Shown: positions 1-16,305 of the stretch, piece by piece
Layout of the letters: every line of letters starts with the position of its first letter
Position numbering within the stretch: the stretch's first letter is position 1
DNA from: a virus
Lineage: Duplodnaviria > Heunggongvirae > Uroviricota > Caudoviricetes
Virus record (IMG/VR): IMGVR_UViG_2617270967_000019
Coordinates: 1 to 19,199 of that record
DNA: 19,199 nt
Reading direction: 5' to 3' (one strand)
Notes under the pieces: generated by a model
Database searches by the model: none
What the model saw: the letters and a program-made list of their open reading frames with translations, nothing else
What the model was told of the DNA's origin: nothing
Position numbers and translations under genes: made by a program

Positions 1-399
1 TCACTTCAGCGGGTAGTCATCAAACTCACCAGTCCGCGCGTCATTGATGATGTACGTCACCACCCCCTTCACTACGACTCGTTCCTCACAATCGTCGTCA
101 GTTATCCATGTCTTTTTATCAGCGTGGTCCAGTTCTTCCAGGTGCACCTTTGGCAGCAGCCTGAGACGCAACAGCCGTATCTGGTCATTCAGATGACAAA
201 TCACCAGGCTTCCGTCTACCGGAGTCAGCGATGTGTCCATGACCAGCAGAGCACCTCTCTTGATTCCTTCCCGCCATGATGTAGCAGCGTAACGGATGAA
301 GAATGTCGCCGCTGGTTTTCGTATCAACTCCTTGTCGAGTGAGATCGCATCCTCGTGGTAATCAGCAGCAGGGCTGGGAAACTGTGACATGGCAACCAT
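1..399 (-). CDS. UmuD'-like protein (LexA/UmuD S24 peptidase fold), N-terminally short
   Basis: 132-aa ORF, ATG at 399-397, stop TGA at 3-1, in-frame stop two codons upstream of the ATG. By-eye alignment to E. coli UmuD: FPSPAADY motif near the N-terminus, then P-AT-F, LLV-D and L-L-P-V-L blocks. It begins about where processed UmuD' begins and lacks the Cys-Gly cleavage site. Ser of the GDSM motif is retained as TSW, but the catalytic Lys position (UmuD VKKL) reads LLRL. Confidence 0.55.
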   Translation of the reverse strand: MVAMSQFPSPAADYHEDAISLDKELIRKPAATFFIRYAATSWREGIKRGALLVMDTSLTPVDGSLVICHLNDQIRLLRLRLLPKVHLEELDHADKKTWITDDDCEERVVVKGVVTYIINDARTGEFDDYPLK

Positions 400-414
400 A
401 ACTCACCTCATTGG

Positions 415-434
415 CACTGTATGTACATACAGTA
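415..434. promoter_or_regulatory. LexA (SOS) box CTGT-N8-ACAG just upstream of the UmuD'-like gene
   Basis: Sequence cactgtatgtacatacagta at 415-434 matches the CTGT-N8-ACAG LexA consensus with an AT-rich spacer, centred about 25 nt upstream of the ATG at 399; it is part of a longer near-palindrome attggcactgt...acagtaccaat. Confidence 0.6.
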
Positions 435-444
435 CCAATGCATG

Positions 445-488
445 GATTTTGATCGTTGCAACCGATCGATTTGAAGATTTTGATCGTT
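445..488. repeat. Two 13-bp direct repeats (GATTTTGATCGTT) with three GATC sites in the divergent intergenic region
   Basis: gattttgatcgtt occurs at 445-457 and 476-488 (31 bp apart, three helical turns). GATC at 451-454, 464-467 (inside the palindrome cgatcg) and 482-485. Confidence 0.6.
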
Positions 489-578
489 ATTTCCCATAAC
501 CAAATAGTGAGCAATTTTGGGACATTTATTATAAATTTAAATTGTCTTTAAATATAAATATCCAATCGGTAAATCATC

Positions 579-1865
579 GTGAAAAATAATTCCGCGCTGT
601 TTGTTGGTTCTTTTTTTGAAAGTGACCAAAGCTCAAAAGTAAACCTGGCATTATCTTATGATGGAGAACGATTCGAAAAAATAAAGGCTCAATTCCTTTG
701 GGCTATTGGTGGAACTGGAGAAGTTTTAGGGAGAGACCCATCAATTATTTATCACAACGGTTGGTGGTTAATAGCCGTATCAGGATATACAGAAAACGTT
801 TATGACGTCGATTGCTGGCGCTCACGTGATTTAACCGTGTGGGAACTGGTACGAATTAAGCTTGGCGATACGCCAGTCTGTGGGAAACGATTACCGGGTT
901 CAGATCTGGTGACCACTGACGTGTGGGCTCCTGAATGGTTTGTTGATGACGAAAATCTGTTCCTGATAGTCAGCCTGCGTTATTACAACGATCAGACTGA
1001 CAGTAAAGGTGTAAATGTCAAAAGTTTTAAAACATTCTATTCTGTCTGTTCTGATGTTGAGAGACTGGAGTTTTACGATCCGGTTGCGGTAAATATCGAA
1101 CCAAAAAACATGATTGATTCTGTTTTTTCCAGAATATTCCAGACGTATTACCTGACAATAAAAGATGAAATCACCAAAAAAATTGAGGTGTATTGTTCAA
1201 ATTGTTTCTCAGGACAGTTCACGAAATTATCAGTAATTCCGTTTACTCAGGCGGCGGAAGGCCCGGCGCTGGTTTATTTGCCGGACGGCACGATCAGAAT
1301 CTATGCGGATTTTTTCGACACAAAAAAATGGACTTATTTTGTAGACACGAAAGACTTCGTGACGTTCACGCCAGAGCGCCCCGTTTTGTTTGACGGCAGA
1401 ATTAAGCGCGGGACTATTACAAATGTGCTGAACTGGCGCGATAGTGAAACCGCATTGCAGCAACTGTCGGCGCTGTTCTGTGCAAACTCCGGGGATTTAC
1501 AGCCAGGGAAAATCCACAAGCTCATTGATGTAGCGGGAACGAGCAATATCAACGCTACTGATTTAATCTGGTGGCCTGAAACTGGACATTGTTATTTCAC
1601 CGAGGGGTTATCCGGTAACGTGACAATCAATGCGCTGCCAACTGTTTACCCGGACGGGAGTTCGTTTTATCTGATGGTCCGAAGCGCAACGCCGGGAGCT
1701 GGTGATCTGACGCTTAAACAGGCTGTCGGCGACCTGTACCACCCGGCTAATGGCATGGCGATATTTGATGCTGATTTGGTAGTGGCGGCTGGCGGGAACG
1801 CCGCATCACGTCTGTTTAGAATGGTGTGCTTTGATGGCCAGTTGTGGGTTGAGGGGGTTTTCTGA
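579..1865 (+). CDS. Hypothetical protein, possible five-bladed beta-propeller glycoside hydrolase (GH43-like)
   Basis: 428-aa ORF, AT-rich. The only in-frame start after the upstream stop is GTG at 579, with a weak RBS. Motifs resembling the GH43 catalytic triad context: GRDPSIIYHNGWW (about residue 50), DVWAPEWF (about 117), AEGPALVYLPDG (about 227). No signal peptide seen. Function is a low-confidence guess. Confidence 0.45.
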   Translation: MKNNSALFVGSFFESDQSSKVNLALSYDGERFEKIKAQFLWAIGGTGEVLGRDPSIIYHNGWWLIAVSGYTENVYDVDCWRSRDLTVWELVRIKLGDTPVCGKRLPGSDLVTTDVWAPEWFVDDENLFLIVSLRYYNDQTDSKGVNVKSFKTFYSVCSDVERLEFYDPVAVNIEPKNMIDSVFSRIFQTYYLTIKDEITKKIEVYCSNCFSGQFTKLSVIPFTQAAEGPALVYLPDGTIRIYADFFDTKKWTYFVDTKDFVTFTPERPVLFDGRIKRGTITNVLNWRDSETALQQLSALFCANSGDLQPGKIHKLIDVAGTSNINATDLIWWPETGHCYFTEGLSGNVTINALPTVYPDGSSFYLMVRSATPGAGDLTLKQAVGDLYHPANGMAIFDADLVVAAGGNAASRLFRMVCFDGQLWVEGVF

Positions 1866-1899
1866 TATAATTGTGGCTCAATGAAAATTGGGCCACATA

Positions 1900-2961
1900 A
1901 TGAACAATAAAATATTTTCCGTCCAGTATCTTCGTGGAATAGCAGCGCTACTTGTGGTGCTGTACCATTTTTCTTTTTTTACTCCGCGCTGGTTTGCTAA
2001 TTTATTTGCAAATGGCATGGTGGGCGTTGATATTTTTTTCATTATCTCTGGATTTATTATTTATTGGTCAACAATAAATCCTGAGGAATGCAGACCAACG
2101 GTATTTATTGTTAAACGATTCGCCAGAATATACCCGCTATTTTTTGTTGTGTTACTGGTTTCGTTGTTATTGCAACCTGCGCCTGCCACACAATTATCCA
2201 GGGGTTTTCTGGTTCTGCACAACGATTACACACTACCCGCTCCGGCGTTTGGATTTAATCTGCTACCGCCCGCGTGGACATTGACTTATGAAATATCGTT
2301 CTACGCTATTTTCTGTATGTGCGCTGCAATAACGACCCGGTATCGAGGTTCATTGTGTATCGCGCTGCTGATTGCAATCCCGGCAGTGCTACAGGTTGCG
2401 TTTAATGGAGGGTTGTCGTTTAACAGCACAGTCACCGCTATCCCTCCTGCTGACTCGCCGTTTTATGGTCTAATCAGGCTGGCAGGCTCAACGATGTTTT
2501 ATGAGTTTGCGTTTGGGATTATGTCTGGAATGATATTTGAAAGGTTTAAATTAATTCTTCCTAACTTAACTGCTATTACTATAGCAATATTCGCATCGGC
2601 TTTATTTTTCTATTTTTTCTTCACATTCTCAGACCATACCAGCGGTATAGAAGGAATGTTCTTTTTTGCTGCAATATTTTTTGTGGGCGTTTTGATGCTG
2701 GATAAATCAAAGGCGGGAGAGATAAAAGCATTATCAATTCTTGGCGACCTGACATATAGCATTTATCTCTGTCATTGGCTGGTAATGCAGATGGTACAGA
2801 AATTTATTCCGATTGGGGAGTATAAGCACTGGGGCGTCCTTGTCCCCTGCATGCTTGTTGCTTCTCTGATGATGGCATTCGCAGCTAACCGGATAATTGA
2901 AAAACCGTTTATCCGTCTGGCCCGTTCGGCGCTGAAACGCCAGGAGATTACGACGCGGTAG
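1900..2961 (+). CDS. Acyltransferase-3 family integral membrane O-acyltransferase (OafA/Oac-like)
   Basis: Begins MNNKIFSVQYLRGIAALLVVLYHF, a typical acyltransferase-3 N-terminus, followed by multiple hydrophobic segments. ATG at 1900; the ORF track start at 1888 is TTG. Sits 22-35 bp after the upstream gene, suggesting an operon. AT-rich. Confidence 0.65.
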   Translation: MNNKIFSVQYLRGIAALLVVLYHFSFFTPRWFANLFANGMVGVDIFFIISGFIIYWSTINPEECRPTVFIVKRFARIYPLFFVVLLVSLLLQPAPATQLSRGFLVLHNDYTLPAPAFGFNLLPPAWTLTYEISFYAIFCMCAAITTRYRGSLCIALLIAIPAVLQVAFNGGLSFNSTVTAIPPADSPFYGLIRLAGSTMFYEFAFGIMSGMIFERFKLILPNLTAITIAIFASALFFYFFFTFSDHTSGIEGMFFFAAIFFVGVLMLDKSKAGEIKALSILGDLTYSIYLCHWLVMQMVQKFIPIGEYKHWGVLVPCMLVASLMMAFAANRIIEKPFIRLARSALKRQEITTR

Positions 2962-3412
2962 CAGGACGTGGCGGCCATTCAAGGCTGTCACTTAATATCG
3001 CTGCTTCATCATTAAACTTCATTTTCTTCAAGGCATCGATATGAGAAAGCCACTCTTTAAAGGTCGCCTTCTCTTCATCGGTGATGATCTCCAGAATGAG
3101 CTTAGAAGGCCAGTGTTCGCTGCTTATATATGCGTTAGCCGCAGAGATTAACGCATCTCTCTTTGACTCGGCCTGTGCCAGTTTAAGCGCGAACAGTTCT
3201 TCTTTAGTTGGCTCGGGAATTTTTTCCCACGCAGGCATGCCGTCTGGCCCTGCAACCCTTCGCATGCCGTCTTTAACTGTTGGGTAAAATTCGGCGAAAA
3301 CACCCATATCAACCGGCACAGCATCACTGTATTCGTCCGTCTTTAACAGAGAGCTTTCCTTGAAAACAAAAGCGTTGCTTTTGGCACTATATAAAAAATC
3401 TGAATCAGACAT
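2948..3412 (-). CDS. tfa: Tail fibre assembly protein (Tfa-like chaperone)
   Basis: 154-aa ORF; C-terminal region ...KATFKEWLSHIDALKK...SLEWPPRP resembles the conserved tail of tail-fibre-assembly proteins (lambda Tfa, Mu U). Its ATG overlaps the stop of the upstream fibre-like ORF (TAATG at 3410-3414). Confidence 0.5.
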   Translation of the reverse strand: MSDSDFLYSAKSNAFVFKESSLLKTDEYSDAVPVDMGVFAEFYPTVKDGMRRVAGPDGMPAWEKIPEPTKEELFALKLAQAESKRDALISAANAYISSEHWPSKLILEIITDEEKATFKEWLSHIDALKKMKFNDEAAILSDSLEWPPRPATAS

Positions 3413-3847
3413 TACGCTCTCCCGATAGCAATCCAGTTAAAAACTGTTGGCTGCGCAGTAAAGTTGTGGTCGGACGAACTCCAGGTTGCAGAACGAACAT
3501 TAAAGCTCCCTGCGTTAACCTTTTCGGCACCATACACGGTTAAGAGTTGATAGATACCGCCGGAGGCTGTCCATCCAGAGACATGGCCTTCTACTGCAAA
3601 TACCTGGTATGAGCTCATCGCCACACCCATATTCACATTATAAAATCCGTTACTGTCCGTTGTACCTACATCCATCTGGATGATCATATTGCCAGGAAGG
3701 CGAATAACCACACCAGACCCGGTTGTTGTATAGGTAAAGGATGACATATCCGGAACTTGCCCGGTAGCCGGTATAAATCACACACTCTCCGACATACACA
3801 TCATCCGGATGGGCAAACAGCTCTTGTTTGTCTGTGAGCTCTGCCAT
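3412..3847 (-). pseudogene. Tail-fibre-like (receptor-binding region) remnant split over two reading frames
   Basis: Two overlapping minus-strand ORFs in different frames (3650-3847, 65 aa, ATG with a GGAG RBS; 3412-3747, 111 aa, Gly/Ser/Thr-rich). The second frame is open from 3777. Position immediately upstream of tfa suggests a truncated or frameshifted fibre gene. Confidence 0.35.
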
Positions 3848-4204
3848 TGTTGGCTCCGTTTATCCGTTAAAAGGGATATCAGTTAAGTTATCCCGTGCAG
3901 GGTATAAGCCATTGTCGAGACCACTCATTGAATGGCCTCTGCAATAACCGATGTCTTTCCATCAGTCCGCCACAACAAAGAATCTTTTTTGCCATAAGGC
4001 AGGAGGTTCATCTTTCAGTGGCTGCCAGTGTTATTTCCCCACTTACTGGCTTGGGTTGTTTCGTGGTACTGCCGTAACTGGTTGCCAAGAATAAATTCCG
4101 GTTTCATTATCAAGCCCACCCGTAGATGGGCTTTGTAATGGATAGCCGTTGCTCAGTTCTCGTAATGCTTTGATTTTTCCGATAACGCAGTTTTGCGTTT
4201 GCCA

Positions 4205-4726
4205 TCAGCACGCGATATCGAGAGTCAACTGCAGTTGCTCGCGCCAGTACTCAACATTTGCTTCAATAACCGGCTTATCCCATCGCCAGCGAGCCATCTC
4301 TCTTGCCCCATTGCTGGCTTTTGATTTCCGGTCATCGCGAATGCGACATGCTTGCTCATATTTCTGCTGCTCAGTCAGTTCACCGCGAAGCAGACTATCA
4401 ATGTGCAGGTCGCACCACACAGCAAAACGAGCATCACACCAACGGGCAAATGCAACTGAAAGTTTTGGATGTAGCCACGTACCACCACCCCTGTCCTTTC
4501 GTGCCTTGCTGGTTTTTACATACCTCGATTGTGAGGGATGTAAAATTTGAGATTCTTTCCCGGTCAACGCTTCGTCTAAAGCACGAACGTATTCAAGCGT
4601 TTCTGCCAAACGCATCCAGTTATCAATGCGTTTTCCAAATCTCTCAGCAACACCTGTGACGTTGATCCAACCATCAGTGTTGAAACTGACAATTTCACCT
4701 TTGTAATTAAGTGGCACGATATTCAT
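4205..4726 (-). CDS. KilA-N domain protein
   Basis: 173 aa; N-terminus MNIVPLNYKGEIVSFNTDGWINVTGVAERFGKRIDNWMRLAETLEY and the later WLHPKLSVAFARWCDARFAVW block match the KilA-N (APSES-like) DNA-binding domain pattern. Confidence 0.55.
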   Translation of the reverse strand: MNIVPLNYKGEIVSFNTDGWINVTGVAERFGKRIDNWMRLAETLEYVRALDEALTGKESQILHPSQSRYVKTSKARKDRGGGTWLHPKLSVAFARWCDARFAVWCDLHIDSLLRGELTEQQKYEQACRIRDDRKSKASNGAREMARWRWDKPVIEANVEYWREQLQLTLDIAC

Positions 4727-6397: not shown

Positions 6398-6473
6398 TGG
6401 TGCTGGTTAACGGACTTGAACCGCTACCCATTCGCTTACAAGGCGACTGCTCTACCATTGGAGCTAAACCAGC
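6398..6473 (-). tRNA. tRNA, anticodon UGU (Thr) by manual folding
   Basis: Minus-strand 76-nt cloverleaf GCTGGTT-TA-GCTC-CAATGGTA-GAGC-A-GTCGC-CTTGTAA-GCGAA-TGGGT-AGCGG-TTCAAGT-CCGTT-AACCAGC-A-CCA. Perfect 7-bp acceptor stem, 4-bp D stem with GG in the loop, T loop TTCAAGT, encoded CCA; one mismatch at the top of the anticodon stem. Confidence 0.6.
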
Positions 6474-6478
6474 ATATT

Positions 6479-6552
6479 TGGCGGGACAGCGTGGACTCGA
6501 ACCACGATAAGAAGGTTAACAGCCTTCCGTAATGACCTTATACGACTGACCC
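6479..6552 (-). tRNA. tRNA-like, anticodon GUU (Asn-type), atypical D-arm (possible pseudo-tRNA)
   Basis: Minus-strand GGGTCAG-T-CGTA-TAAGGTCAT-TACG-GAAGG-CTGTTAA-CCTTC-TTAT-CGTGG-TTCGAGT-CCACG-CTGTCCC-G-CCA (74 nt). Anticodon loop and T loop match E. coli tRNA-Asn; one acceptor mismatch and short junctions around the D arm. Confidence 0.45.
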
Positions 6553-12599: not shown

Positions 12600-13955
<1,356 letters not shown>

Positions 13956-16114: not shown

Positions 16115-16140
16115 CGTTATGTATAAATAAGGAGCACACC

Positions 16141-16305
16141 ATGCAATATGCCATTGCAGGGTGGCCTGTTGCTGGCTGCCCTTCCGAATCTTTACTTGAA
16201 CGAATCACCCGTAAATTACGTGACGGATGGAAACGCCTTATCGACATACTTAATCAGCCAGGAGTCCCAAAAAATGGATCAAACACTTATGGCTATCCAG
16301 ACTAA
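16141..16305 (+). CDS. cIII: CIII (FtsH inhibitor)
   Basis: 54 aa, [54 protein letters not shown], recognised as lambda CIII; AAGGAG RBS. Confidence 0.9.
   Translation: MQYAIAGWPVAGCPSESLLERITRKLRDGWKRLIDILNQPGVPKNGSNTYGYPD

Follow-up and report, generated by a model that had tools for sequence, protein, structure and literature searches.

UmuD' of Escherichia coli arises from a 139-aa precursor by RecA*-dependent self-cleavage at Cys24-Gly25 with the help of Ser60 and Lys97, and its gene forms an operon with umuC. The concept of HumD, a UmuD' homologue that is made short from the outset, is already known, with phage P1 as the source of the prototype in 1999 and a curated NCBI family today; the first description of P1 HumD is reportedly that of McLenigan et al. 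in that year (J Bacteriol 181:7005). The P1 GenBank record states that humD "functionally complements E. coli UmuD'" (P1 HumD, GenBank AAQ14073). According to the note in this record and PMC7092418, P1 HumD can stand in for UmuD' during SOS mutagenesis and is a binding partner of UmuC and RecA*, properties known for this family member only; PMC9603915 likewise agrees with the P1 record on HumD function.

Here, we analyzed a 19,199-nt stretch of viral DNA (referred to below as the window), which opens with a gene of this kind. The window protein and P1 HumD are alike in their length (about 130 aa), in starting at the UmuD' N-terminus (..FPSPAADY), in having neither a cleavage site nor an adjacent umuC, in a putative LexA box 15-19 nt upstream, and in the tail INDARxGEFDDxPxx, with 55% identity. 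They differ in that P1 HumD keeps both Ser and Lys (ADSHH, IKRY), whereas the window protein has Thr40-Ser41 and Leu77. In addition, the N-terminus is MVAMSQ, with five extra residues, in the window protein but MG in P1 HumD, and the C-terminus is YPLK rather than CPVI. The window humD marks the att end of an integrated prophage of lambdoid type, whereas P1 humD lies beside phd-doc on a plasmid prophage. Four other phage genes, encoding N15 gp26, phiKO2 gp23, HK140 gp28 and the HK639 protein, share family, length, tail and LexA box with the window humD and are found after tail-fibre genes, near an att, int or par locus. HK140 and the window have the humD 3' end, the DNA of the attP arm and the ..DDYPLK terminus in common; however, a 79-aa ORF (PHROG 3893) lies directly upstream of humD in HK140, with the LexA box before that ORF, which is not so in the window. 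The processed proteins UmuD' (1umu, 1ay9, 1i4v), MucA' and RumA' show about 30-35% identity to the window protein and share with it the S24 beta-fold and the N-terminal FPSPAADY, and presumably also a role in which a LexA-controlled dimer serves a Y-family polymerase as its accessory subunit. Unlike UmuD', the window protein is translated short, has neither the site nor the Lys nor an adjacent polymerase gene, and carries an extra acidic C-terminal tail.

A predicted HumD-family protein begins near the UmuD' start

The first open reading frame of the window encodes a 132-aa protein running from MVAMSQFPSPAADY to GEFDDYPLK, and the first three window bases are its stop codon (Table 1). The protein scored 171.1 bits against the NCBIfam HumD equivalog NF051876 (cutoff 120; profile positions 3-128 of 129), but remained below the cutoffs of the autoproteolytic UmuD model NF007621/PRK10276 (78.5 bits vs 110) and of the LexA model (17 bits vs 111). 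It also matched the UmuD-like PHROG 811 (2e-40) and Pfam Peptidase_S24 (PF00717; 27.7 bits, above the cutoff). [quoted passage not shown] In a sequence search of the PDB, UmuD and UmuD' were the best matches (E = 2e-15 to 4e-15, residues 6-119) and LexA was much weaker, in agreement with an initial annotation of this DNA that had aligned the protein to the UmuD core. The AF2 model had a mean pLDDT of 75 (86-92 in the core), and confidence was low at both termini (residues 1-18 and 128-132). In the fold comparison, the model came closest to 8gmt (UmuD on RecA) and the UmuD' structures 1umu and 1ay9, with a target-normalised TMt of 0.80-0.83 for 8gmt and 1umu.

Table 1 Positions of the features discussed in the text
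Feature	Position in window	Strand	Remark
humD-family CDS, 132 aa	1..399	-	stop TGA 3-1, start ATG 399-397; from the ORF list and profile matches
Codons of the HumD C-terminal tail (..VVTYIINDARTGEFDDYPLK)	1..66	-	abuts the shared attP P arm; megablast
In-frame TGA	403..405	-	two codons 5' of the ATG; direct sequence reading
Shine-Dalgarno-like GAGGTG	404..409	-	4 nt before the ATG; direct sequence reading
LexA (SOS) box, predicted	415..434	.	TACTGTATGTACATACAGTG on the gene strand, 15 nt upstream of the ATG
LexA box core CTGT-N8-ACAG	417-432		perfect 16-nt palindrome
Inverted repeat of 32 nt around the box	409-440		CATTGGCACTGTATGT/ACATACAGTACCAATG
13-nt direct repeat GATTTTGATCGTT	445-457, 476-488		within the intergenic part 445-497
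Dam GATC sites	451, 464, 482		within the intergenic part 445-497
428-aa and 357-aa proteins	579-2961	+	two-gene module
Right end shared with six contigs	1-3772		3.77 kb
Tail-fibre remnant to Q	3412-4726		junction of gene fragments
tRNA-Thr(TGT), tRNA-Asn(GTT)	6398-6552	-	between Q and lysis genes
Prophage CI	12922-13554		complete HTH_3 + S24 repressor
Lambda cIII thermoregulator RNA element	16128-16186	+	Rfam RF01804, 88.5 bits

When phage records were searched with tblastn, the HumD proteins of P1, P7, D6, SJ46 and RCS47 showed 54-57% identity over 95% of the length, and N15 gp26, phiKO2 gp23, HK140 gp28 and the HK639 protein 49-54%. The exact window protein is already public, both as an E. 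coli "S24 family peptidase" and, in UniRef, as a "HumD family translesion DNA polymerase", so that the name HumD has been attached to it before. The idea of the initial annotation, a UmuD' analogue induced by SOS and independent of self-cleavage, is supported, because it is what the HumD family is, as judged from the passed NF051876 model and the annotation of the P1 record; that such a family already existed had gone unrecognised in the annotation.

The position of the N-terminus points in the same direction. Gln6 stands opposite UmuD Gly25 with five residues before it, which confirms a start near that of UmuD', and Ser5-Gln6 takes the place of Cys24-Gly25, so the cleavage site said to be missing is indeed missing. 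An in-frame TGA only two codons ahead of the ATG leaves no room for a longer N-terminal arm that could be cleaved. The humD gene is under purifying selection and is not decaying: dN/dS was 0.077 against the Phytobacter orthologue (89% identical; dS ~1.07); only the Phytobacter and HK140 genes gave comparisons in which NG86 dS was not saturated. Overall, the window protein is an ordinary HumD-family member, that is, a pre-shortened UmuD' homologue behind a putative LexA operator. A mis-called start, a repressor fragment and a pseudogene were also considered as readings of this ORF and were rejected.

Loss of the catalytic dyad among pre-shortened homologues

The absence of the catalytic Lys was borne out by the alignment to UmuD, in which Leu77 is opposite Lys97 and Arg78 opposite Lys98. 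The retention of the catalytic Ser, which had also been claimed, is doubtful. The pairwise phmmer alignment places Ser41 opposite UmuD Ser60; however, the HumD proteins align with one another without internal gaps (P1 ADSHH, N15 GATHY, window AATSW), which makes Thr40 the equivalent of Ser60, and the family-consistent alignment thus gives Thr40 at Ser60 and Ser41 at Met61. The ambiguity near the GDSM motif arises because the HumD proteins are one residue shorter there than UmuD. Alignment to the UmuD families therefore revealed neither an intact Ser-Lys dyad nor a cleavage site.

The relation between protein length and dyad was examined with an exhaustive phmmer search over 1.84 billion cluster representatives, which yielded 2067 matches. 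The best 150 of the 2067 were aligned and split by N-terminal length, a protein being counted as pre-shortened when it had 6 or fewer residues before the Gly25 column, and the counts refer to 50%-identity representatives. The large MAFFT alignment gapped HumD exactly at the Ser60 column; this gap was treated as an artefact, and the residue preceding it was used for that column, guided by a small alignment in which P1 ADSH pairs with UmuD GDSM. Among these best 150 of 2067 matches, an intact Ser60+Lys97 pair was found in 3 of the 39 pre-shortened representatives but in 49 of the 67 full-length ones (Fisher p = 1.6e-11). The Lys97 position was occupied by K in 15, R in 16, C in 3, V in 2, L in 2 and Q in 1 of the pre-shortened proteins, and by K in 54, R in 10 and C, E and M in 1 each of the full-length proteins from the same 150. 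The cleavage site of the aligned full-length representatives was mostly Ala-Gly.

The clade to which the window protein belongs (P0001-P0019, from E. coli, Phytobacter, Kluyvera and Salmonella) has Leu at the Lys97 position throughout. Other phage HumDs vary, with Ser + Lys in P1, Thr + Lys in N15, phiKO2 and HK140, and Met at position 97 in HK639. Dyad loss is thus the rule among the pre-shortened proteins, as expected when self-cleavage is not needed: under this condition the Ser-Lys dyad becomes dispensable and would have decayed, here to Thr40 and Leu77. An engineered UmuD' with S60A is reported to have remained proficient in mutagenesis (Nohmi et al. in 1988), and the dyad would accordingly be required for cleavage only.

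A putative LexA operator upstream of humD

The SOS box that had been noticed just upstream of the gene is close to the consensus. The sequence TACTGTATGTACATACAGTG matches TACTG(TA)5CAGTA at 17/20 positions. With up to three mismatches allowed, this 20-mer consensus occurs once in the window and in 0/200 shuffles, whereas the loose CTGT-N8-ACAG pattern alone is not significant (at least 1 match in 47/200 shuffles). The box is enclosed by a 32-nt inverted repeat. A single base differs between the window and the identical-humD contig L002, where the 20-nt box, TACTGTATGTACATACAGTA, is a perfect palindrome. A promoter and terminator scan of positions 1-700 gave nothing at threshold, so no sigma-70 promoter was called around the box, and manual inspection near it showed weak -35/-10 candidates only; the Rfam scan of 1-600 likewise found nothing.

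Equivalent boxes precede the humD unit in P1, N15, phiKO2, HK639, HK140 and the loci L012-L018, so that none of the homologous loci checked was without one. The CTGT-N8-ACAG motif lies 8-19 nt before the humD ATG in P1, N15, HK639 and a Phytobacter locus (L016), 44 nt before it in phiKO2, and 257-262 nt before it in HK140, L012-L014, L015 and L018. In HK140, L012-L014 and L018, the box is 17-22 nt before a 79-aa ORF, the end of which overlaps or abuts the humD start. LexA sites are also annotated in the GenBank record of P1, 19 nt ahead of humD, and in that of phiKO2.

The 79-aa ORF belongs to PHROG 3893, has no Pfam hit, and is located at 4390-4629 in HK140 (L001), 3762-4001 in L012-L014 and 3760-3999 in L018. 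With humD, which it overlaps by one base or abuts, it would form a two-gene SOS operon behind one putative LexA box; the ORF is absent from the window.

humD at the attachment end of a prophage

A question raised by the initial annotation was whether a umuC-like gene follows beyond position 1. The answer came from contigs with the identical protein, which is indexed in 80 blocks of an assembly collection; of these, we read the 24 whose contigs were longest. In six of these loci (L002-L007), humD is followed by 344 nt and then by dacD, sbmC, yeeA, yeeX and either cobUST or CP4-44 genes, which corresponds to the dacD/sbcB region of E. coli. The contigs hence run into the prophage attachment arm and host dacD, and not into a polymerase gene. 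No umuC was found next to humD in the six identical-gene loci or beside any homologue examined, nor did a Y-family polymerase gene adjoin humD in the P22-like, lambda-like, Mu-tailed, N15-like and P1-like contexts examined. Neither the window nor the flanking regions of L002-L007 showed the host umuC.

The ~125 nt after the humD stop are near-identical between L002 and the attP arm of the free phage HK140; GTACCAAA repeats lie inside this segment, which is followed by divergence. The shared arm corresponds to window 1-66, L002 8400-8530 and HK140 (L001) about 3885-4066, and the "putative attP" feature of HK140 overlaps the humD 3' end. [quoted passage not shown] A megablast search with positions 1-600 matched only bases 1-66, at 84-92% identity, in HK140, HK544, mEp234 and about 240 complete E. 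coli genomes; DNA conservation is limited to this stretch because it adjoins the shared int/attP module. A scan of genome contigs returned two distant or partial loci only, which gave no useful context. Homologous humD genes lie where late operons end and have int, att or par loci as neighbours. Several Stx prophage records, and Sf101 as well, end in truncated 3' pieces of humD (aa 50-132).

The 3.77-kb right end of the window is 99.5-99.9% identical in L002-L007, where it is joined to Mu-like or other baseplate modules. The same right end on differing modules points to a mobile att-proximal cargo cassette. Further inside the window, what is left of a tail-fibre gene (111 aa) and a tail-fibre assembly gene border directly on a truncated Rha-like regulator, Rz, endolysin and Q. 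Lacking its head and tail genes between 3.7 and 4.2 kb, the window prophage looks defective. Its CI repressor is complete, and two tRNA genes and a lambda cIII thermoregulator element were also detected (Table 1).

Divergent genes opposite humD

The two rightward genes encode a 428-aa protein with weak similarity to GH43/GH32 beta-propellers and to phage tail proteins, and a 357-aa Acyl_transf_3 O-acetyltransferase (PHROG 3333, 1e-56). This two-gene cargo module travels with humD in all six of the six identical-humD contigs. At the DNA level, positions 400-2961 had no match in 50,697 phage records (distant mode) or in 5,426 complete E. coli genomes (near mode).

The intergenic part before these genes contains three Dam GATC sites and a 13-nt direct repeat. 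The element GATCGTTGCAACCGATC combines GATC-N9-GATC with an 8/10 match to the OxyR half-site consensus, as in the P22 gtr OxyR(A) site GATCGGTAACAACGATC, and a second half-site-like sequence lies 31 nt from it, compared with 32 nt in P22. This arrangement suggests a possible Dam/OxyR phase variation of the O-antigen-modification genes downstream of 445-497.

A conserved acidic tail specific to HumD

Residues 119-132 of the window protein are NDARTGEFDDYPLK and contain the tail motif NDARxGEFDDxPxx, of which N119, D120, A121 and G124-D128 do not vary in the family alignment A1. No part of the family is more strongly conserved than this tail (window 1-45; homologues P0001-P0033), which UmuD lacks. 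Among the best 150 of the 2067 phmmer matches, it was present in 15/39 pre-shortened but only 1/67 full-length representatives. AF2 predicted the tail with low confidence.

One representative (P0027) ends in ..GEFDDTPF, and the C-terminal tip of SSB is DFDDDIPF; the HumD tail, NDARxGEFDDxP followed by a hydrophobic residue, resembles that tip. The conservation of a tail that UmuD' lacks hints at an activity beyond simple UmuD' mimicry. The tail is acidic, has no counterpart in UmuD', MucA' and RumA', and is flexible by prediction; it could be a partner-recruiting peptide, an idea to which we give only a slim chance.

Discussion

We consider it likely that positions 1-399 of the window (minus strand) are the humD gene of an E. 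coli lambdoid prophage, the LexA-controlled product of which is a ready-made UmuD' analogue that partners the host UmuC and skips self-cleavage. In the uninduced cell, the host LexA would occupy the operator at 415-434 and keep humD off; upon DNA damage, RecA* would trigger LexA cleavage and HumD would be made. A HumD dimer would then take the place of UmuD' beside the host Y-family polymerase UmuC, as its accessory subunit, giving a pol V-like complex and omitting the slow RecA*-stimulated conversion of UmuD to UmuD'. The partnership with UmuC, the resulting translesion synthesis and the repression of humD by LexA are proposed here by analogy with P1 HumD and pol V. Functional equivalence to P1 HumD, the one characterised member, is assumed at an identity of only 55%; unlike P1 HumD, the window clade lacks the Lys, begins with five additional residues and carries Gln where Gly25 would stand.

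Pol V activity still requires RecA* (as pol V Mut), and transcription still requires LexA cleavage. The earlier suggestion that the usual RecA checkpoint is skipped therefore holds for the cleavage checkpoint only; RecA* would still be needed to activate the complex, so that only one RecA checkpoint would be removed.

Other explanations for this gene have to be weighed against its service as a UmuD' analogue. HumD might act mainly as a binder or decoy of RecA* filaments, with its dead S24 core occupying the RecA* groove used by LexA, CI and UmuD, and would then tune SOS shut-off or the timing of prophage induction, as phage DinI homologues do. The UmuD core does bind the RecA filament, the top fold match is to 8gmt, HK140 and phiKO2 have humD and a DinI homologue side by side with a shared LexA site, the FPSPAADY of the UmuD cleavage-site region is highly conserved although it is not cleaved here, and the repressor of the prophage is itself a cleavable S24 protein of CI type. 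Nevertheless, both its annotation and the citing literature have P1 HumD complement UmuD' in mutagenesis, and such binding would be compatible with a UmuD' role; we therefore regard a primary decoy function as unlikely. It is also quite improbable that the LexA box acts, instead of or besides on humD, on the rightward pair of genes, which encode the 428-aa GH43-like protein and the O-acetyltransferase. The box does lie within a 179-nt divergent intergenic region, and the P1 site is annotated as regulating both lxr and humD; however, it is 15 nt from the humD ATG vs 145 nt from the rightward start, it keeps its position relative to humD despite quite different neighbours, and the rightward side has a gtr-like GATC/OxyR-type element of its own.

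The two remaining explanations concern the integrity of the ORF. A functionless, decaying remnant with its active site lost, be it of umuD, now a pseudogene, or of a repressor reduced to its C-terminal domain, would be consistent with the loss of Lys97 and of the GDSM motif, with a prophage that seems to have no structural genes, and with the truncated humD fragments at the ends of Stx prophages. We think this very unlikely, as a dN/dS of 0.077 was obtained against an 89%-identical orthologue at a dS of about 1, the ORF is intact, full-length and equipped with an RBS, the identical protein recurs in the 80 assembly-collection blocks (24 contigs read), and the LexA box and the C-terminal tail are conserved across a wide family. 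A normal self-cleaving UmuD with its true start further upstream has practically no chance of being correct: general UmuD similarity, and nothing else, speaks for it, whereas all close relatives begin at the same point, the score is under the cutoff of the autoproteolytic UmuD model, and the in-frame TGA two codons before the ATG already refutes it.

The quantitative link between pre-shortening and dyad loss goes slightly beyond the accessible literature, as does the conserved acidic tail. If the tail does recruit partners, the dyad-less prophage HumDs would do more than replace UmuD': HumD might, for example, dock onto SSB-client or RecA*-bound proteins and thereby redirect repair or replication, or time induction, during the SOS response. 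As a class, the HumD proteins are phage-encoded, LexA-controlled versions of UmuD' that bypass the RecA-dependent cleavage step of pol V activation, and their genes are a common att-proximal cargo, always without umuC, of lambdoid, P22-like, Mu-tailed, N15-like and P1-like temperate phages.
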